Shown: positions 9,517-52,546 of the stretch, piece after piece
Layout: the number at the start of each line of letters is the position of its first letter
How positions within the stretch are numbered: the first letter of the stretch is position 1
Sequence record: NZ_CP120951.1
Source of the DNA: a plasmid
Direction: 5' to 3' (one strand)
DNA length: 64,000 bases
Program-made: the position numbers and the translations under genes
The notes under the pieces: model-generated
Database searches by the model: none
The model's input: the letters and a program-made list of their open reading frames with translations, nothing else
Told to the model about the DNA's origin: nothing

Positions 9517-10037
9517 TACGCACCTCCAGCTTCACGAGACATCTCACCTGGTTCGCTGAACGCCGCGAGATCTCTCGCGCTCGCTTCTTGCGCGATCCAA
9601 GTGCGTACCGCCTGGCGATGCTCGGCAATGAGACGTAGATCGCGCCGCACCAGCGGTCGGCCAAGCGCTGCGACTTGCTGGCGGTATTGCTCAACCGATT
9701 CGGCATCCAATGCGTCGCGCGCAAACACATCTCTCAGAACCGGCAGGTCGTCGGCCGCCATCGGCGACCACGCGGTGTTGGTGGACCACGGAGAGGCATC
9801 GCTCAGAATCGGTATCGCGAATACCACCAGCAGAAACATGACAAACCCACCGAGCACGCTCGACGTCTGGCCCCAGAGGACGCGACTTAGCACGCAAAGT
9901 TCGATCGCAGCGACCACGCCGCATGCACTGAACCACCACCTCAGTGCGCGGCGGCGTTCCGCATCGAGCTCGGCCTGCGTCGGCGGCGCACACAGCACGG
10001 GATGCAAATTCGTCCACTTGATTTCTTGTTCGCTCAT
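9516..10037 (-). CDS. hypothetical membrane protein downstream of virB11
   Basis: Internal Met MSEQEIKWTNLHPV... of ORF 9516..10292; TM segment GVVAAIELCVLSRVLW...FVMFLLVVFAIPIL; start overlaps virB11 stop (ATGA). Confidence 0.45.
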   Translation of the reverse strand: MSEQEIKWTNLHPVLCAPPTQAELDAERRRALRWWFSACGVVAAIELCVLSRVLWGQTSSVLGGFVMFLLVVFAIPILSDASPWSTNTAWSPMAADDLPVLRDVFARDALDAESVEQYRQQVAALGRPLVRRDLRLIAEHRQAVRTWIAQEASARDLAAFSEPGEMSREAGGA

Positions 10038-14375: not shown

Positions 14376-14735
14376 TCACTTAGCTTCCACCCGAACGTTC
14401 TCGTCACGCCGGAATTGCACATGCTGCGTTTTCGGGTCATAGCTGATACTGATAGCGCCAATACCCATATTGATCTGCAGCATGCCGCTCACGAGCGTCG
14501 CCGGAACGCGACTCGAAGCAGCAGTCAAGTCACACTGATTTTTTGTGTCGAACCGGCAGCTGGTGACGATGAATCCATCTTGACCGCGTTCGATCACGAG
14601 ATCGGCGCCGTATCGTTCATCCGGATGCAACTGCTTCCACCGACCGACGAATTCCTCTCCCTGTCGGGGCTGACAGCCCGTCACCGCGGCCGCTGCGGCC
14701 AACACCACGACCAATCCGAAAACGTGTTGTTTCAT
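14376..14735 (-). CDS. small lipoprotein, candidate entry-exclusion (Eex/TrbK-like) protein
   Basis: MKQHVFGLVVVLAAAAAVTGCQP... with a lipobox; strong GGAGGG RBS; located between virB6 and virB7 as eex is in pKM101-type operons. The function is inferred from position only. Confidence 0.5.
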   Translation of the reverse strand: MKQHVFGLVVVLAAAAAVTGCQPRQGEEFVGRWKQLHPDERYGADLVIERGQDGFIVTSCRFDTKNQCDLTAASSRVPATLVSGMLQINMGIGAISISYDPKTQHVQFRRDENVRVEAK

Positions 14736-35945: not shown

Positions 35946-36251
35946 CTACTTCCCCTCTTCTCCCTGGTGTCCGCCGTCCTGAGCCGATTCGGCCTCAGCT
36001 GCAAACTTCACCTTTATTTCGGACAACTTGGGACAGGCTTCTTTTAAAACTCCCATCACTCGGTCAAAGTCACGCCATGTGCGTTGCTTACCGCGTTGCC
36101 CCTGAAGGGTGAACAGTTTCTCTTGCTCGAAGAGGAAGACCTGCACTATCCACAGCGGCCGGCCCTCTTCAACGATTTCAACAACCCAGATTTCACATTT
36201 CTCCCCTGTGCGGTATGCGAAAGCCAGTTCTTGCAGTGATATGCCTGGCAT
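35946..36251 (-). CDS. hypothetical protein (101 aa)
   Basis: Internal ATG preceded by a strong RBS AGAAGGAAGAGGGGAAGG; the upstream ATG at 36296 lacks an RBS. Confidence 0.45.
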   Translation of the reverse strand: MPGISLQELAFAYRTGEKCEIWVVEIVEEGRPLWIVQVFLFEQEKLFTLQGQRGKQRTWRDFDRVMGVLKEACPKLSEIKVKFAAEAESAQDGGHQGEEGK

Positions 36252-36329
36252 CCTTCCCCTCTTCCTTCTGAGGTGTAAAAGGGAAAGTATCGCCATGACT
36301 CCGCTAGAAGATCGCCACTCGTTGTAAAG

Positions 36330-36355
36330 TATACAAACTTGCAGGAAAGTTTATA
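36330..36355. promoter_or_regulatory. imperfect inverted repeat (operator-like) in AT-rich divergent promoter region
   Basis: TATACAAACTT-gcagg-AAAGTTTATA lies between divergent genes 35946..36251 (minus) and the xre-like gene (plus); the 325-bp intergenic region is AT-rich. Confidence 0.35.
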
Positions 36356-36576
36356 ACTTTTATCCTACTCGCATTCATCTGACATAGCAACAACGATTCG
36401 ACCTTCAAGCAACAAAACTCCGTGCGCCGCCTGTATCTTGAGCATGTTGAGATGTGTCACCCCGACCACCAAGTCAGTTGCGACAACGATCTACAATCTT
36501 GATTACAGATCGCTCAACAATAGTCATAAAAATACCTCATAAAAGGTTGCTGATCAACCATAATTGGGGTATTTCG

Positions 36577-37005
36577 ATGGGCTATCTTACGCCGATGGAT
36601 AATTCTAATCAGGGCCAGGGCCGGACTCCCTTCGGAGAACGCCTTCTCGCTGCACGGCGGAGAAAGGGCTTTTCGCAGAAGCAGGTCGAGGCACGTGTCG
36701 GCATCTCGCAAAGCAACCTGGGAGCCTTGGAGACAAAGGGCACCGGCTCGGCCTTCACTGTCGCGCTTGCGTTGCTCTACGGAGTTAGCCCCGTATGGCT
36801 TGCGATGGGCAAGGGCTCCATGGAAGGGACGTCCCCTATACCCGACTGGCTTGCCGAGCTCAATGAGCGCGAGCTTGACGCAGTACGACACTTTGCTGCT
36901 GGCTTGGTCGCAGCGCGCCAGATCCATGGGGGGAAATCACGCACCACGCACGTTAAGCCTCTGCCGCCGCCATCCCCTGACGCGCCCGCTGACCAAACCG
37001 ACTGA
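36577..37005 (+). CDS. XRE-family HTH transcriptional regulator
   Basis: HTH_3 signature RLLAARRRKGFSQKQVEARVGISQSNLGALETKGTG; no S24 peptidase domain; 142 aa. Confidence 0.75.
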   Translation: MGYLTPMDNSNQGQGRTPFGERLLAARRRKGFSQKQVEARVGISQSNLGALETKGTGSAFTVALALLYGVSPVWLAMGKGSMEGTSPIPDWLAELNERELDAVRHFAAGLVAARQIHGGKSRTTHVKPLPPPSPDAPADQTD

Positions 37006-37017
37006 AGTAGATTCCGA

Positions 37018-37968
37018 TTACCGAAAGCCCGTTCGGTCATCCATGGCGAACCCGCCACTGATCGCATCGTGCAACTCATACGCATCTTGGACTGCACGAG
37101 CAGCGAGCCGCTGTGCCTGCAATACAATCCGTGGATCAATTGCGCCTCCCTCCATTGAGGCCAGCAACATTGACGCACCGTTTGTCAAAGCAGCCCAGTC
37201 CACAATCCGGGCTGTTAAAGCGCGCAAGTAAGCACCGTTGGCCACTGCGGCTTCATGACCAGCATCTCCGGCCACGTCCGTCCCAGTTTCTTCGATAAGT
37301 TCTGCGCCCGAGCATAGAATTAACTCCGGCTCGCCGCTTTGCAGCGACGGAACAAATCGATTTCGAAACAAGAACGGCCGCGCCCCGCCAACCGTGTTGA
37401 TCATTCGACGAACATCGTGGATGCTGCCCTGCTCAAAGAAGCGGGATATGTTGGTCCGCGACTCATGAGCGGCGGACGCAGACATGAAGAGATCGTGCGC
37501 GCTCTCGCCCATCACGTCCTCCTCTCGATACCCCGTGTACTCCTCTGCCCGCCGGTTAAATCGCTGAATCATGCCGCTCTTGTCCAACACGACCACAATC
37601 GCATTGGTCTCTGATACCAGCCCCTCCGAAAAGGCCATTGCGCGCATCGTGATATTTGCGACCGACTCGGGATCCCATAGCGAAGCGGCGACCCCCGCCC
37701 ATTCACCAGTGTGGATTTTTTTCCCGATGAGGTATAAGTCGACGTGCTCACCATAGATCTGAACGTTCAGCGTCACCATCGAGGTTGCGCCCGTCAAGCC
37801 GCGAATCCGCTCGGCTTCGCGACCAATCACCTGGATAGGGATCGTCGGACCGAACTCGTCACCGGCCGCGGACAGCGTCAACACACGATCATGATTGGAA
37901 TATCGCCAAATTGGCGTTGGGGTCCCAAAGTGATTCTTGAGCCCCGCAAATATGGTCTTCTCACTCAT
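37018..37968 (-). CDS. three-domain regulator-like protein with a central PAS-like domain
   Basis: The N-terminal 100 aa is paralogous to the adjacent 125-aa protein (LYLIGKKIHTGEWAGVAASLWDP vs FYLVGKRITDRIWRGVASVDP); the middle is PAS-like (VVVLDKSGMIQRFNRRAEEYTGYREEDVMGESAHDLF); the C-terminus is unknown. Confidence 0.55.
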   Translation of the reverse strand: MSEKTIFAGLKNHFGTPTPIWRYSNHDRVLTLSAAGDEFGPTIPIQVIGREAERIRGLTGATSMVTLNVQIYGEHVDLYLIGKKIHTGEWAGVAASLWDPESVANITMRAMAFSEGLVSETNAIVVVLDKSGMIQRFNRRAEEYTGYREEDVMGESAHDLFMSASAAHESRTNISRFFEQGSIHDVRRMINTVGGARPFLFRNRFVPSLQSGEPELILCSGAELIEETGTDVAGDAGHEAAVANGAYLRALTARIVDWAALTNGASMLLASMEGGAIDPRIVLQAQRLAARAVQDAYELHDAISGGFAMDDRTGFR

Positions 37969-38017
37969 TGCACACCCACAGCTTGTCACCACCTACATTG
38001 CCAGACCGAGATCACCC

Positions 38018-38395
38018 CTAGCTTGCGCGACGTACCGGGAACCTCACGACGTTACTGGCCTCTCGCTCTTCCCATGCAGAGATCATCGATCCATTCGGGA
38101 CAAGGCCCGGGTCAACAGAAGCGACCCCTCGCCAGATTCGATCAGTAATCCTCTTCCCCACCAGGTAGAACACCAGCGGTTCCCCTGAGATCGTGATCCT
38201 GCATGATGTTTTCGTAACTTCACCGCCGAAGGCGCGCACCTGCGCAGCTTGCTCGCGATCAAGCTCTGCGGCAATACTCGTCACACGAGGATTACCACCG
38301 AGACCAATGATGTTACTGTCGTCAGTTAACGTCCAGACAGGGCACGCTGTCCCCGTACGCAACAAAAAGAAGTCCTCAACCCCGAAGCCAGTCAT
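38018..38395 (-). CDS. small protein paralogous to the N-terminal domain of the downstream PAS protein
   Basis: 125 aa sharing the motif with 37018..37968; co-directional, 50-nt gap. Confidence 0.5.
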   Translation of the reverse strand: MTGFGVEDFFLLRTGTACPVWTLTDDSNIIGLGGNPRVTSIAAELDREQAAQVRAFGGEVTKTSCRITISGEPLVFYLVGKRITDRIWRGVASVDPGLVPNGSMISAWEEREASNVVRFPVRRAS

Positions 38396-38682
38396 CTAAC
38401 ACCTTTATTGATTAATTATTCAAACTTGATAAGACGCTCACCCCGCACACCTTAGCCGCATAACATGCAAATCGCATAACGGCGCAAAGGTACGCGAACT
38501 TTAGGCCGGACGCTGCATTGCTCCGAATAAGTCGTCGTTCGTTGACGCCTGGCACGCGCCGAATCCGCCCCATCGTGCCGAGCCACGCCAATCTTAGCCG
38601 ACCGCGAGCGGCCTTATCGGACCACATCAGCTGTCGGCACAATTTGGCGGCGGATTTGCGCGCACATGCCCGCCGTCATACA

Positions 38683-38698
38683 CTGTATATTTATACAG
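38683..38698. promoter_or_regulatory. LexA-binding SOS box (CTGT-N8-ACAG)
   Basis: aCTGTATATTTATACAGgt matches the gamma/beta-proteobacterial LexA consensus TACTGTATATATATACAGTA at 16 of 20 positions. It lies 76 nt upstream of gene 38774..39100 and about 290 nt upstream of the divergent minus-strand pair. Confidence 0.55.
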
Positions 38699-38773
38699 GT
38701 GTTTTGGCCGGCACACGACGACAAACGTCGATCGGTAGCCGTCAACGACTAGCACAACGGAGCGGCTTACTCG

Positions 38774-39100
38774 ATGACTTCACGGACCCACAAAGACGGC
38801 GACGTCTTGCTCGACGACGGCACTTACTTCATCGAAAGCGATGCAGCCGCCGGCCAGGACGGCAGGACCGGTCGCCTGATGCGTCGGTGCGATCGCGCAT
38901 CGCCCGACGCTAGCGCAGTTGAATGTGTCGGCATCTACGAATTGACGATGGGCGGCAAATGGCGTGTGACCATAACGTCATACTATGACGCTCGGACTGA
39001 TTCGGAAACGCACGAGATCGGCGCCTTCGAGAACAGACTGGACGCAATCTGCACGCTCTGGAAAAGTCGGCACGATGCAATCGGTAGGTATGCAAACTGA
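38774..39100 (+). CDS. hypothetical protein downstream of SOS box
   Basis: 108 aa; clean ATG; protein-like composition. Confidence 0.45.
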   Translation: MTSRTHKDGDVLLDDGTYFIESDAAAGQDGRTGRLMRRCDRASPDASAVECVGIYELTMGGKWRVTITSYYDARTDSETHEIGAFENRLDAICTLWKSRHDAIGRYAN

Positions 39101-39160
39101 ACTGGCCAGCCGACAAACGCCGATTGCTCTCAAGCACTTCCTACCTCTCCGTGATCCAGC

Positions 39161-39433
39161 ATGCAGAACTACAGTCGCCCGGAACGCACGCCGCTTACGG
39201 CTGCTGAATTACGGCAGATCTATGATGAGAACCCCACACCAGCGGTCCGCACGCTGCTGTGGGAAATCCATCGATTACGCCTTACTCTGATACACGTGAA
39301 CGATGTGCGGCGCTGTTTTCGCAGTCAGCCAACGAGTGTTCCCACGCCGCTTTGGGATCTGTTCCTCAAGCGCCTAAACGCAGAGCCTTGCCTGCGTGAC
39401 GGTAACGGATCGTCTCGTAGAAATTATTCCTAG
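39161..39433 (+). CDS. hypothetical protein
   Basis: 90 aa; co-directional with 38774..39100. Confidence 0.35.
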   Translation: MQNYSRPERTPLTAAELRQIYDENPTPAVRTLLWEIHRLRLTLIHVNDVRRCFRSQPTSVPTPLWDLFLKRLNAEPCLRDGNGSSRRNYS

Positions 39434-39452
39434 GTATCGGCCAATCACAGCG

Positions 39453-39470
39453 CACCATTCAATTTCTCGC
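39453..39470. repeat. 18-bp perfect palindrome TTTCTCGCATGCGAGAAA (copy 1 of 5; putative ParB/KorB-binding site)
   Basis: Perfect palindrome in the convergent intergenic region; the 16-bp core TTCTCGCATGCGAGAA recurs at 40143, 41792, 41915 and 41984. Confidence 0.5.
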
Positions 39471-39504
39471 ATGCGAGAAACGAAGCGAACGCTTCGCGAC
39501 TACA

Positions 39505-39834
39505 CTAGCCCTCTTTCTGCGAAAAATACTTGATCCGCTCTTGCTCGACCTCGACCATGAACTTCTCGAGCAAGTCTTGCGGGGCACATACTGTCGCCCT
39601 AACCCACTTTGGGGGAAACATTGACGACTGTAGATATTCGGCGAAAAAGCGGTTCCGAATAGCCAGCACTTGCTGTCGCTTCATTCCGTGCCGCTCTCCG
39701 ACCTCGGACAGTCCTCGGCCCTCCACCAAAACCTCACGCGCGACCTGTAGGCTGCGCTCCTTCATCCGAGTTTGATCCGCCACTCTTATAAAATCCTCTT
39801 CGGGTAAGCGGTACATATCGGCCAACGGTTGCAT
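39505..39834 (-). CDS. korA: KorA/TrbA-family transcriptional repressor
   Basis: ...LQVAREVLVEGRGLSEVGERHGMKRQQVLAIRNRFFAEYL...KWVRATVCAPQDLLEKFMVE matches the HTH and C-terminal region of IncP KorA (EIARGVLVDGKPQATFATSLGLTRGAVSQAV...YARVTAVLPEHQAYIVRKWE). Confidence 0.7.
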   Translation of the reverse strand: MQPLADMYRLPEEDFIRVADQTRMKERSLQVAREVLVEGRGLSEVGERHGMKRQQVLAIRNRFFAEYLQSSMFPPKWVRATVCAPQDLLEKFMVEVEQERIKYFSQKEG

Positions 39835-39850
39835 GTAGATCCCTTATGCA

Positions 39851-39882
39851 ATATCTACGATCTACCTGCCGATCGTAGATAT
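39851..39882. promoter_or_regulatory. 12-bp perfect inverted repeat operator ATATCTACGATC-N8-GATCGTAGATAT in korA-like promoter
   Basis: Located 17 to 48 nt upstream of the korA-like start codon, between the parB stop and korA. Confidence 0.5.
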
Positions 39883-39887
39883 TAGGT

Positions 39888-40886
39888 TTATTTGGATGCG
39901 GCCAATTTCGTCAGCGCGTGATGCGTGCGATCAAGCTCAGCCCGCGCCTGGAAGATACTTTTCTCGACATCAGGGGGCATCACGCCAAAAACATCGCGTC
40001 GCTCCTGGAATACTTTCGCCAACACGCCAATTTGATCGCGCAATGCCTGCACCTGCGACACCGCATCAGCCACGATCACAACAGCATCTGTTGCCGCTTT
40101 AGGCTTCTTCGCCTTCTCTTTCGCGTCATCGGCACTCGAGGATTCTCGCATGCGAGAATTAACCTCGCTTCCCGCCTTCGTGCTTGGCTTCGCGTCTTTC
40201 AGCTTGCCTCGAATCGCTTTCCGCACATTCGCGCCCGAATCGGTTTTCGCCTGTTCAACCACCGCTTGTGCGGCTGCCGGGTCGACCTTTTCAAGGCGAT
40301 GCAGGTCATTGATCGTGGTGATGTCGGCAGTGACCCCCTCTGCGACAGCTTGGCTCGCATGCCCACCCGCCTCCACGACCTCAAGAAACTTGATGCGCTC
40401 GGCTACCCAGTTCAGCCCCTTGTTCCACTCCGCCGCAACTTTCTCTAGCGTGCCAAGTCGGGCTTTATCATCTCGCAGTGCAACAGCTATTTCGAGTTGG
40501 GTCAGATTCTCGCGCTGGATGTTCTCCGCGCGCTGCACTCGGCGCGCCTGCTCATCATCCATGTCCCGCACGACGGCCTTGAGCTTGATGCCTGCGATCT
40601 TGCACCCGCGCCAACGTCGCTCACCCGCCACCATGAGGTAGCGCCCGGCCTGCTTGGGGTTCTTACGCAGCACCGCCGGCTCATGCTGACCATCACGCTT
40701 CATGTCATTGCCAAGTTCAGTCAACGACTCCACCGTGAAGCCCGGATTGTCCATACTGCGGATCTGCTTCTCGCAATCGACCAACTCCGGATCGACCTCT
40801 TCGATCCGCTCGCCTGGCAAAGCGGCCGCAGCGCCCTGCTTCTGAATGTCTGATAACTTACTGATCTTGTTTCCGAATGCGCTCAC
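39888..40886 (-). CDS. parB: ParB/KorB-family partition and global regulator protein
   Basis: ParB box MVAGERRWRGCKIAG; HTH; acidic/Lys-rich linker; C-terminal dimerisation region; follows parA with an 8-nt gap. Confidence 0.85.
   Translation of the reverse strand: MSAFGNKISKLSDIQKQGAAAALPGERIEEVDPELVDCEKQIRSMDNPGFTVESLTELGNDMKRDGQHEPAVLRKNPKQAGRYLMVAGERRWRGCKIAGIKLKAVVRDMDDEQARRVQRAENIQRENLTQLEIAVALRDDKARLGTLEKVAAEWNKGLNWVAERIKFLEVVEAGGHASQAVAEGVTADITTINDLHRLEKVDPAAAQAVVEQAKTDSGANVRKAIRGKLKDAKPSTKAGSEVNSRMRESSSADDAKEKAKKPKAATDAVVIVADAVSQVQALRDQIGVLAKVFQERRDVFGVMPPDVEKSIFQARAELDRTHHALTKLAASK
40142..40159. repeat. 18-bp perfect palindrome ATTCTCGCATGCGAGAAT inside parB coding sequence (copy 2)
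   Basis: Encodes NSRMRES of ParB; same core as the other copies. Confidence 0.5.
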
Positions 40887-40896
40887 GACATTCCCC

Positions 40897-41706
40897 TTAA
40901 TTCAATCCAAGGCGCGACAGTACTGCGTCGCATGCTTGCCGCATTTCCTTCCCCGCGGCACGTTGGTTCCCGCTACGAGCCTGATGCCATACCGCACGCC
41001 CCTGCGCCAGCGCAGTAGCAACGCACGCGCGAGCAATAATCGCTTCATCAAAGATAAGATCGCCGTATGCCTCGCGTAGCTCCGGTAACGCCTCTACTTC
41101 ATTCACCGACTTGCTGTTGACCATGTTTGGCAGAAAGCCGAGGTGGCGTAGTTCCGGGTTGTACTGCGCCTTTACGCCGGCGATCGTGGCTTGCAGCTTC
41201 GGCATGCGCGCGAATGAAAATGGCGAAATGTTGAACGGCGATACGATCGCATCCGACGCTGCAAGTGCGCCAAGCATGCGGCGCTGCAAATTCGGAGGAG
41301 TATCGATAATGCACAGATCGTAGTCGGCGGCCAGCTTTGCGAGTGATGCGCGCGGCTGCTCGATAACTTCGAGCGGCATGTCATCTACGTCCAGAACGTC
41401 AACATCGGCCTCGATCAGAGCGATCCGCTCGTGCACTTGCCTCGGACGGCGACCGTCGATCGCGCCAGTGAAAAGATGGCTCGCTTTCAAATAGTCGGTG
41501 TCGTCACCTTCCTCTATCTCCGCGAACACTTCGGAAATGTCGCCCTCATCGATGTCTATCAGCAGAACGCGATAGCCAAGTTCGGCCGCGCGAAATGCCA
41601 GATGGACACTGAACGTGCTTTTACCGACACCGCCTTTCTGATTGCCAACGGTCACGGTCTGCATGAGAGCTTGCACCAGCTTCTTGATTGCGTGATTTGC
41701 TCGCAT
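40897..41706 (-). CDS. parA: ParA/IncC-family partition ATPase
   Basis: Deviant Walker A NQKGGVGKSTFSVHLA; the second Met MQTVTV at 41664 is an alternative start. Confidence 0.85.
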   Translation of the reverse strand: MRANHAIKKLVQALMQTVTVGNQKGGVGKSTFSVHLAFRAAELGYRVLLIDIDEGDISEVFAEIEEGDDTDYLKASHLFTGAIDGRRPRQVHERIALIEADVDVLDVDDMPLEVIEQPRASLAKLAADYDLCIIDTPPNLQRRMLGALAASDAIVSPFNISPFSFARMPKLQATIAGVKAQYNPELRHLGFLPNMVNSKSVNEVEALPELREAYGDLIFDEAIIARACVATALAQGRAVWHQARSGNQRAAGKEMRQACDAVLSRLGLN

Positions 41707-41758
41707 AGGGATCAGCCTTACGAAATCAGGTTGAACAGAATCGGCCTTCGCCGAACTG

Positions 41759-42361
41759 TTGTCATCTTATTTTCCGGTAAACACTTTGTCAACACATATA
41801 TTTCTCGCACGCGAGAAATCACTCCGTTCGGCGTTACACGAGCACCGCACATCGAGCCTCACCGACCGCACGTCCGTAACCAGCGATTGTTATGTCCCTT
41901 CTATTGGGGTACGCTTCTCGCATGCGAGAAATCTCCAACAGGCGGGAGCAACTTACCGGGAATCACCAGCTCATTTCAGGCGATTCTCGCATGCGAGAAA
42001 CCTGAAGCCGATACACCACCCGCAACTCATCGACATTGACCAGCCAGGCAAATCGGCATTCTTCGCGTTGCCGCCCACGTTCCCGCCAGAACTGGTGCCG
42101 GAAGCTTGCGCGCAATTTGTGCGCGACTGCGTGCCGGGGCTGACGACGCGCGAGCTTCTTGCACTCACTCAGGCGCACGGTTGGCGGCCGACTTGGAAGC
42201 CGCTGCAGCACTTGACGCGGGACGATCTCGAAGCGTTCGGTCTTGGCCTGACGGTCGATGGCTGCGGCGTGCCGTTGATCGCGCGAATGCGACGGGTGGG
42301 GCAGGGCGTGCGGCCGACACCACCGCAAGAACGCAACTCACGGCAGATGAATCTGTTTTGA
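41759..42361 (+). CDS. hypothetical protein; true start uncertain (N-terminal part of ORF runs through the palindrome array)
   Basis: The C-terminal 110 aa (…ELVPEACAQFVRDCVPGLTTRELLALTQAHGWRPTWKPLQHLTRDDLEAFGLGLTVDGCGVPLIARM…) is protein-like; there is no internal ATG with an RBS; the track start is TTG. Confidence 0.3.
   Translation: MSSYFPVNTLSTHIFLAREKSLRSALHEHRTSSLTDRTSVTSDCYVPSIGVRFSHARNLQQAGATYRESPAHFRRFSHARNLKPIHHPQLIDIDQPGKSAFFALPPTFPPELVPEACAQFVRDCVPGLTTRELLALTQAHGWRPTWKPLQHLTRDDLEAFGLGLTVDGCGVPLIARMRRVGQGVRPTPPQERNSRQMNLF
41791..41808. repeat. imperfect palindrome TTTCTCGCACGCGAGAAA (copy 3) upstream of parA
   Basis: 16 of 18 positions are symmetric; lies in the parA upstream region. 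Confidence 0.4.
41914..41931. repeat. palindrome cTTCTCGCATGCGAGAAa (copy 4)
   Basis: 16-bp perfect core. Confidence 0.45.
41983..42000. repeat. palindrome ATTCTCGCATGCGAGAAA (copy 5)
   Basis: 16-bp perfect core; three copies cluster within 210 bp upstream of parA (centromere/operator-like array). Confidence 0.45.
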
Positions 42362-50569: not shown

Positions 50570-51828
50570 TGCTCGGCCGGGAGGGTTCTGCATATGGTGT
50601 CAATTTTCAGAATGATCGGCTTGTCCAGCTTGATAAGTCTGGGCTTACTGTAGACCATGAAGTCGCCGCCGCGATTATGCACCGATCGCCAGTCGCGGTA
50701 CGTCTTGTTATGGACTGGCCAGTAGACATCCTTTGCCAGGAATTTCCGAAAGCGGCTGGTGCGTTTGTCGACCGGCTTGTTGACCTCTTCGCCCTCGGGG
50801 AGATAACGCCACTCCTCGATGGTCGAGTTCCCGACATTCAAGTTGCTGCTTTTGAAGAAATCGTTGACGGCCGCGACGTAGGACAGAACCATACCGGTCT
50901 TGTTCCAGTGGCCGAGGTATTGGCTCTTGGAAGGCGAATCGTCGTTGAACGAGTAGCTGTCTTTGATGTAGACGTAGATGTGGGTGATCTGGGCGACCGG
51001 CTCGAGACAGAAAATCTTGCGCTTGCCTTCGTACTTGTAATAGCGATCCCCGGTGACGGTCGCCTTCCCGATGGCGGCGTAGAAGTTGAAGTTTGCCAGG
51101 GCCCCGGTCAGATCGGTCATCGCGGTACCGTCGAGCGTATCGAGCGACGACACGGGCTGGTACTGGAATCCCCAGGCGATGTGAAACTGGAGCGGATCCC
51201 TCAGAAACGGCGAAGTGTCGATCACGATACCGGCCGCGTTTAACTGCCCGCCCGAGAAACTCTTCTCGATCACAGGTGCCATGACTTTTGAGGCGGCTCG
51301 CACGGCATTCGGCGTGTAAATCGCTTGCCGCACGAGCTGATTGAAGCGCTCGGATGCGCCGCTAAATTTCAATGCCCAATCCAGGGTAACCGTTGTGTCG
51401 TCGAGCGGCTGTACCGAGTTGAGATCGTTGTTGTAGACGTGCTTGGGGCTCGCAAGCCATTCTCGCGCGAGCTTGGCCGAAATTGGCCAGCCCATCTTGT
51501 CCATTGCTTTGGGGATGTCCTGCAGGTCGAACTCGGGCAGCTTGTCGGCTTGCTCCGCGTCTTGCGGTTTATCGCTCAGTTGTGGCTTGGCGGGCGGCTT
51601 CGCAGGTGCTGGAGCAGGGGCGGGCGGCTTTTGCGGCGCGACTGGAGCGGCTGCCTTGGGCGGGGGTGGCGGTGGAGGCTCGTTCGGCGCGAGCCTGTCG
51701 AACGAGATTCTCTGCTGCGTATCGATGGGAACGCATCCGACTACGCCAGAGTAGCATTTCCACCGTTTGCTGGAATATAAAACACCGGATTCCAGCTGAT
51801 AATACGGGACTTTTCTGACGTCTGGCAT
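50566..51828 (-). CDS. large two-domain protein with poly-proline linker (candidate polymorphic toxin/effector)
   Basis: 420 aa: a 45-aa N-terminal module, a PPPPPPPKAAAPVAPQKPPAPAPAPAKPPAKP linker and a C-terminal globular domain of about 330 aa; lower GC than its surroundings; no family recognised. Confidence 0.45.
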   Translation of the reverse strand: MPDVRKVPYYQLESGVLYSSKRWKCYSGVVGCVPIDTQQRISFDRLAPNEPPPPPPPKAAAPVAPQKPPAPAPAPAKPPAKPQLSDKPQDAEQADKLPEFDLQDIPKAMDKMGWPISAKLAREWLASPKHVYNNDLNSVQPLDDTTVTLDWALKFSGASERFNQLVRQAIYTPNAVRAASKVMAPVIEKSFSGGQLNAAGIVIDTSPFLRDPLQFHIAWGFQYQPVSSLDTLDGTAMTDLTGALANFNFYAAIGKATVTGDRYYKYEGKRKIFCLEPVAQITHIYVYIKDSYSFNDDSPSKSQYLGHWNKTGMVLSYVAAVNDFFKSSNLNVGNSTIEEWRYLPEGEEVNKPVDKRTSRFRKFLAKDVYWPVHNKTYRDWRSVHNRGGDFMVYSKPRLIKLDKPIILKIDTICRTLPAEQ

Positions 51829-52472: not shown

Positions 52473-52546
52473 GCGGGCGTAGCTCAATGGTAGAGCAACA
52501 GCCTTCCAAGCTGATGACGAGGGTTCGATTCCCTTCGCCCGCTCCA
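52473..52546 (+). tRNA. tRNA-Gly (anticodon UCC)
   Basis: Cloverleaf with GCGGGCG/CGCCCGC acceptor stem, GCTC..GAGC D-stem, CTTCCAA anticodon loop, GAGGG-TTCGATT-CCCTT T-arm, discriminator U and an encoded CCA. Confidence 0.85.

Follow-up and report, generated by a model that had tools for sequence, protein, structure and literature searches.

The palindrome CTGTATATTTATACAG, at positions 38683-38698 of a 64,000-nucleotide stretch of plasmid DNA (record NZ_CP120951.1; the whole stretch is referred to below as the window), is in our judgement probably an operator at which chromosomal LexA of the host controls orf108-orf90, a small mobile SOS cassette that once had a SRAP gene in front of it. 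As a switch the site is of an ordinary, well-understood type, a mobile element carrying an operator for host LexA, and its value lies in the genes that it flags: orf108 and especially the orf90 family appear to belong consistently to the SOS regulon of Burkholderiales. The 64-kb window does not include the host genome or lexA. Features around the site are as follows.

36574-37005, plus strand: HTH_19 regulator, 143 aa (HTH_19/HTH_3 matches, weak phage CI-repressor match)
37018-37992, minus strand: PAS protein
38018-38395, minus strand: unannotated 125-aa ORF, divergent from the cassette
38508-38639, plus strand: relic of the 3′ end of a SRAP (YedK-like, PF02586) gene, with an in-frame stop (tblastn, blastn)
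38656-38661 and 38679-38684, plus strand: putative sigma-70 promoter read from the sequence, with -35 TTGCGC, a 17-nt spacer and -10 TACACT
38683-38698, no strand assigned: predicted LexA operator (SOS box), core CTGTATATTTATACAG; the extended 22-mer is 38680-38701
38759-38762, plus strand: Shine-Dalgarno sequence GGAG of orf108 (alignment of 9 upstream regions)
38774-39100, plus strand: orf108, 108 aa, first gene of the cassette (ORF list, homologues, dN/dS)
39161-39433, plus strand: orf90, 90 aa, a helical member of a Burkholderiales-wide family (homologue scans, model)
39505-39834, minus strand: KorA/TrfB-like gene
39888-40886, minus strand: ParB gene with a KorB domain
40897-41706, minus strand: ParA gene

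A CTGT-N8-ACAG box with an AT-rich spacer had been reported here in an initial annotation, and the surrounding sequence (...cgtcatACACTGTATATTTATACAGGTGttttgg...) contains exactly that: the core is a perfect palindrome of 7+2+7 and agrees with CTGTATATATATACAG at 15 of 16 positions. We scored it with a symmetric position weight matrix derived from 74 unique LexA sites that have been published for Burkholderia genomes (Sanchez-Alberola et al. 2012; PMC3323433, supplement 4). The 22-mer ACACTGTATATTTATACAGGTG (38680-38701) reaches 30.0 bits, close to the median of 29.8 for the 74 training sites and inside their range of 15.3-37.0 bits; the runner-up position in the window scores 7.0 bits, and the best score in 20 shuffles, 18.3 bits, falls below that of the box. 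This position at the median of Burkholderia sites supports the earlier assignment to the beta- and gamma-proteobacterial class of LexA boxes. Beta-proteobacteria including Burkholderia use CTGT-N8-ACAG (PMC3323433; PMC6595937), the published LexA site of Bxe_A3001 has an identical 16-mer core (PMC3323433), and B. cepacia-complex bacteria have a working RecA/LexA circuit, with a lexA(Ind-) strain available for B. cenocepacia (PMC10944698). The AT-rich spacer of the palindrome, its score within the range of same-genus sites and, as described below, its conservation before orthologous genes despite diverging flanks make it very probable that this is a true site for host LexA.

The site stands alone in the window. 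Strict CTGT-N8-ACAG occurs twice, against 0.52 copies expected; the other match, at 14661, falls inside coding DNA and its spacer is rich in GC. When the spacer is restricted to A/T, CTGTATATTTATACAG is the sole exact match, and 0.18 matches would still be expected in the window with 2 mismatches allowed. A check for further boxes elsewhere in the element had been proposed; pattern and matrix scans of the whole window found none. The 20-mer E. coli consensus with up to 3 mismatches gave no other site in the window, the W-spacer pattern with up to 2 mismatches gave just one poor site there, at 51770, and the matrix scan detected no further LexA box in the 64-kb window or in the 49-kb plasmid record NZ_CP082810.1. 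One box in 64 kb gives no sign of LexA control across the element. Direct DNA-damage control most probably holds for the two downstream genes and is not supported for the element as a whole.

As the annotation had noted, the box lies just upstream of two genes, ending 75 nt before the ATG at 38774. Values of dN/dS are ~0.16 for orf108 and ~0.09 for orf90, low enough to indicate that both are real genes under purifying selection, and dS between copies ranges up to ~0.87. At the cluster level orf108 has 8 homologues with 72-99% identity, all in Burkholderia/Paraburkholderia, and a box is present 57-78 nt before the ATG of every one of the 8, at varying spacing. These boxes have the form CTGT-N8-ACAG, or CTGG-N8-ACAG in one lineage, and differ in their spacers (ATATTTGT, TCATCTAT, ATGTCCAT, ACATATAT and ATATATGT). 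Alignment of the 9 upstream regions gave a mean column identity of 58%, the only invariant elements being CTG..T...TACAG, the ribosome-binding GAG and the ATG; GGAG is found in 8 of the 9, with T as its first base in L011. Since CTG/TACAG is invariant at dS values of up to 0.87, the box has been maintained against near-saturated neutral change. It is also kept where orf90 is decayed or absent (L005, L007, L008 and L012). The homologues lie in KorA/ParB, RepA_C and TrfA replicons, at an IS-flanked site and at a VapBC-flanked site. Three distant orf108 homologues examined on other plasmids (L090-L092) have no LexA box.

The orf108 product has no match in Pfam, NCBIfam, PHROG, PADLOC or PDB sequences, and its AF2 model (pLDDT 73) consists of a sheet of six strands and a C-terminal helix with weak fold matches only. 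A profile search collected 115 distant representatives; 10 of them, longer ones included, were run against Pfam and gave no informative family. In six cases (P0030, P0039, P0062, P0065, P0067 and P0115) the orf108-like domain is fused to a C-terminal KfrB domain (PF18790), which is also found at the C-terminus of a conjugative relaxase in a single example (L014). The KfrB fusions suggest a plasmid-associated module, and we propose that the cassette acquired orf108 as a domain typical of plasmids.

The orf90 family is far more widespread, extending over Burkholderiales chromosomes, plasmids and P2-like prophages. Searches of Pfam, PHROGs, NCBIfam, PADLOC and PDB sequences returned only phrog_32761, to which no function is assigned. 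The modelled protein is a three-to-four-helix bundle (pLDDT 79) with weak fold matches only, and the family shares the conserved motif PLTAAxL...LLWEIHRLR...EPCL. Distant relatives with 36-56% identity occur without orf108, and those examined have a box of their own 0-55 nt before the start, the exception being a Cupriavidus oxalaticus plasmid locus (L019) that lacks one. Examples with their own box come from Paraburkholderia sacchari, a phage-like contig, metagenome contigs, Bordetella bronchiseptica plasmid pA, the Ralstonia solanacearum megaplasmid and the Cupriavidus metallidurans CH34 chromid; boxed orf90 without orf108 is found in the genera Paraburkholderia, Trinickia, Cupriavidus, Ralstonia, Bordetella, Janthinobacterium and Massilia.

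We then quantified this association, counting as strong any site of at least 15.3 bits. A genomic scan limited to one genome per species yielded 67 orf90 loci in Paraburkholderia, Burkholderia, Trinickia, Cupriavidus, Janthinobacterium and Massilia, and sites were sought within 300 nt upstream. A strict box was found at 55 of these loci and a strong site at 60, whereas the remaining 316 kb contain just 4 strong sites. In IMG/VR, scanned independently, there were 37 orf90 loci, 34 of them testable for a box; 32 of the 34 have a strong site, compared with 1 site in the other 228 kb. Absence of the box from 7/67 genomic loci and from L019 indicates that LexA control is not obligatory for the family. 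The box accompanies orf108 and orf90 into prophages, chromosomes and unrelated replicons, and so belongs to the cassette and not to this element.

The settings of orf90 bear on what it may do. In prophage contigs it lies just beyond the portal/terminase genes, in a moron or accessory position, and no homologue was found in deposited phage genomes. In Paraburkholderia it occupies a conserved chromosomal locus, divergent from SRAP and near esterase and SDR genes, which fits a role in the host damage response better than one as an antirepressor. The C. metallidurans CH34 chromid locus (L022; NC_007974.2 1158660-1163860) has boxes at 2271 and 2430, one of them ~22 nt upstream of an orf90 homologue that lacks a feature in the PLSDB table. 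Two LexA sites with the same cores as both of these boxes are listed for Rmet_4549 (PMC3323433), and the site near the orf90 homologue may act on the small gene or on both of the divergent genes. The LexA-regulated hypotheticals hypA/hypB (PMC3323433) were considered as possible orf90 genes but could not be matched to the family, as their boxes and replicons differ from those of the LB400 orf90 locus. A type II toxin-antitoxin pair was rejected because the two genes occur independently, orf90 without orf108 in ~100 loci and orf108 without intact orf90 in the four loci named above.

A recurrent neighbour of orf90 is a SRAP gene, which adjoins it in 32/67 genomic and 11/37 viral loci (about 40%). 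These linked SRAP genes belong to three subfamilies and are arranged divergently, upstream or downstream. The gene is kept in L004, L023, L020, L024 and L026; the first two of these read SRAP - box - orf108 - orf90. In the window no intact SRAP gene adjoins the cassette; in its place is a 132-nt relic with a stop. By tblastn, 38508-38639 matches residues 261-304 of the L003 SRAP protein with 48% identity over 44 aa (E 3e-5), and by blastn window 38529-38616 matches L003 9622-9710, the 3′ end of the SRAP gene, with 75% identity. Given its link to SRAP, orf90 is most plausibly a small accessory factor that binds other proteins in the DNA-damage response. More specifically, and only tentatively, orf90 could be an undescribed LexA-regulated family of small helical proteins that act as partners or regulators of abasic-site crosslinking by SRAP (YedK/HMCES-type), or else as modulators of RecA or of an element repressor in the manner of DinI/Tum.

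Comparison with L003, the B. contaminans plasmid NZ_CP073668.1, also accounts for the present position of the box. The two plasmids have the PAS operon in common at 82%. Window 38396-38505 corresponds to L003 8401-8549, intergenic DNA on the PAS side, and the window box aligns to the L003 box at 9777-9798, downstream of SRAP; between the two stretches L003 has a complete 915-bp SRAP gene. The alignment indicates that ~1.07 kb has been deleted in the window, and this deletion has brought the box close to the PAS operon by accident. The comparison shows that the box never belonged to the PAS control region, which exists without it; the cassette is what a decayed SRAP module left behind. In L003 (9777-13251) the box is followed by a gamma-mobile-trio insertion (gmtX + integrase) in place of orf108/orf90, which suggests that the cassette was displaced there. 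The B. bronchiseptica plasmid pA (L020, 160-2791), a phage-like plasmid, has the order xis - int - SRAP - LexA box - orf90 homologue next to lysis genes; this arrangement places the same SOS module outside Burkholderiaceae.

The last two bases of the putative -10 hexamer, TACACT, are the first two of the box, so that the -10 overlaps its left arm. As a promoter, TTGCGC-17-TACACT is weak (7/12 consensus positions), and a consensus promoter scan of 38380-39520 called no promoter; the window -10 is moreover inseparable from the extended LexA consensus TACTGT. Relatives have matching geometry and stronger elements (TTGAGC-17-TATACT in L004/L023 and TTGACG-17-GATACT in L021), and the TA.A positions directly before CTGT are kept in 69 anchored sequences. 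The gap between orf108 and orf90 is 60 nt and contains neither a second box nor a terminator; the only terminator-like site that the scan found across 38380-39520 is at 39497-39485 on the minus strand. The 5′ UTR yielded no consensus RNA structure and no Rfam family. With no second box, terminator, conserved RNA structure or Rfam match, co-transcription of orf108 and orf90 is the simplest reading.

From these features we infer the position of the promoter, co-transcription, LexA binding and induction by damage. A LexA dimer on 38680-38701 would, given the overlap, cover the -10 hexamer and the transcription start, expected within the box near 38691, and thereby block RNA polymerase, which is the classical geometry of LexA repression (PMC3323433). 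Upon DNA damage, RecA-ssDNA filaments would stimulate self-cleavage of LexA and the operator would be emptied, allowing orf108 and orf90 to be transcribed together.

Other explanations for the palindrome were weighed against this one. It had been placed in a regulatory hub with the PAS operon, and LexA bound there could control the hub or the divergent operon directly and, through it, transfer. Although the box and the start of the divergent 125-aa/PAS operon share one 378-nt intergenic region, with regulators (the HTH protein, the PAS protein, KorA and ParB) clustered nearby, 288 nt separate the box from the first divergent ORF, the PAS-side region common with L003 ends near 38505 and is separated from the box by the L003 SRAP gene, and the box accompanies orf108/orf90 into elements that have no PAS operon. 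Together with the presence of a single box in 64 kb, these observations run against the hub assignment, and we consider direct control of the PAS operon quite improbable. An operator for a regulator encoded by the element (the HTH protein, KorA or the KorB-like ParB) that merely resembles a LexA site is less probable again, to the point of being very hard to sustain. Plasmid control regions are rich in palindromic operators and the box does lie among regulator genes; nevertheless, the operator that this plasmid repeats is a different palindrome, TTCTCGCATGCGAGAA, in 5 copies, the box scores at the median of host-type (Burkholderia) LexA sites, and it recurs before orf90/orf108 in chromosomes, prophages and plasmids lacking these regulators. 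A chance palindrome without function has in its favour that ~0.5 strict CTGT-N8-ACAG matches are expected per 64 kb, yet an A/T-only spacer with a 30-bit score beats all shuffles and the site is kept in ~100 independent loci over a background near zero; the comparative data effectively refute this reading, to which we would attach almost no probability.

A further possibility concerns the products of the cassette. Either orf90 or orf108 could be a LexA-controlled antirepressor of a non-cleavable repressor such as the HTH protein at 36574-37005, in which case damage would ultimately activate the element. Small genes behind LexA boxes are found on mobile elements, orf90 lies just beyond the portal/terminase genes in prophages, and the plasmid's HTH_19 protein has a weak CI-repressor match and no S24 peptidase domain; located between the pilus genes and the PAS operon, it is a candidate for such a repressor. 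Against this, neither protein matches DinI/Tum or any other Pfam family, the chromosomal Paraburkholderia orf90 locus with SRAP, esterase and SDR genes has no evident element repressor, and deposited phage genomes contain no orf90 match. We therefore regard an antirepressor as unlikely and favour a host LexA operator serving a mobile orf108-orf90 cassette.

Direct LexA control on mobile elements is already documented. Mobile-element genes under LexA include tum of coliphage 186, the Gifsy antirepressors, integron intI and colicins, and Tum and the Gifsy antirepressors are precedents for LexA-controlled antirepressors. The position of orf90 in prophages and its putative LexA control recall tum, a resemblance to be taken as no more than a lead, and we found no relation of orf90 or orf108 to the Tum/DinI-like or Ant antirepressor families. 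SXT uses an element-encoded repressor that cleaves itself when stimulated by RecA. SetR of SXT/R391 thus likewise couples a mobile element to DNA damage; the window differs in that it has no S24-peptidase repressor nearby and in that its predicted host LexA site would control a cassette, not transfer genes. The initial annotation had drawn a contrast with SXT, which does not make the site novel since LexA boxes on mobile elements are well documented. Other cases are a single box before umuD-dinB on Acidovorax plasmid pACM6 (PMC6595937), a putative LexA box at IncC higBA (PMC8265657), a LexA site in phage GIL01 (PMC4551915) and plasmid-borne imuA cassettes with LexA boxes in Burkholderia, Cupriavidus and others (PMC3323433). 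The window cassette resembles accessory genes of the pACM6, higBA and GIL01 type in having a host LexA site on a mobile element, with genes that would fire on DNA damage; unlike them, it encodes no translesion polymerase, toxin-antitoxin pair, integrase, bacteriocin or antirepressor that could be recognised, and its two products fall into no family described so far.

The box has the same palindrome and AT-rich spacer as the Burkholderia LexA operators of lexA, recA, imuA-imuB-dnaE2, uvrA, dinB and splB (PMC3323433); unlike the known genes of those operators, orf108 and orf90 are not in the regulon list of that study. SRAP has been tied to SOS operons (Aravind et al. 2013, PMC3765255, in the part of that paper drawn on here), and the window cassette likewise is or was SRAP-headed and is putatively LexA-controlled. 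The SRAP neighbourhoods given in the same part of the paper comprise UmuCD, ImuA/B-DnaE2, DinB, Ku/ligase and helicases, with no small partner resembling orf90 among them. Within this portion of the literature, neither the coupling of orf90 genes to LexA boxes nor their frequent proximity to SRAP appears to have been described. The box gives concrete, testable access to a part of the DNA-damage response that has gone unstudied in the clinically relevant B. cepacia complex, and it corrects the idea that transfer or regulatory genes of this plasmid are wired directly to LexA. If orf90 does act on SRAP, RecA or a repressor, the cassette would be a portable module for DNA-damage tolerance or SOS relay, with the box as its switch.

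The initial annotation compared the element with ICEs; the sequence gives no support for an ICE and is that of a circular plasmid with KorA, KorB-like and ParA control genes. Window 36000-40000 is 100% identical to the circular 49,329-bp Burkholderia contaminans plasmid NZ_CP082810.1, and a 449-kb B. aenigmatica plasmid contains a part that matches it at 93% identity. The window corresponds to NZ_CP082810.1 plus a 21.4-kb stretch (9283-30743) missing from that record, which puts the plasmid at ~70 kb. Judged from the pil genes at its edges, this stretch probably carries pilus/transfer genes, and either NZ_CP082810.1 is a deletion variant or the window is an insertion variant.

Several minor observations were made on the surrounding genes. 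The 125-aa ORF matches the N-terminal ~80 residues of NCBIfam PRK10060, annotated as a cyclic di-GMP phosphodiesterase, with E 3e-10, a match that falls far short of the model cut-off; by eye the ORF looks like the N-terminus of the adjacent PAS protein, and the two may share a paralogous N-terminal domain. The 16-bp palindrome TTCTCGCATGCGAGAA lies around korA-parB-parA at 39464-39479, 40143-40158, 41802-41817, 41915-41930 and 41984-41999 (one copy with 1 mismatch), against 0.06 copies expected. They differ from the LexA box and probably serve the plasmid itself as operators of the KorB/ParB type or as centromere sites. A tRNA-Gly(TCC) gene is located within the plasmid sequence at 52473-52546 on the plus strand; it has no counterpart in the PLSDB table, which omits RNA genes. 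G+C content is 0.55-0.57 across 36001-42000, the regulatory and partition region, compared with 0.60-0.65 in the flanking segments.
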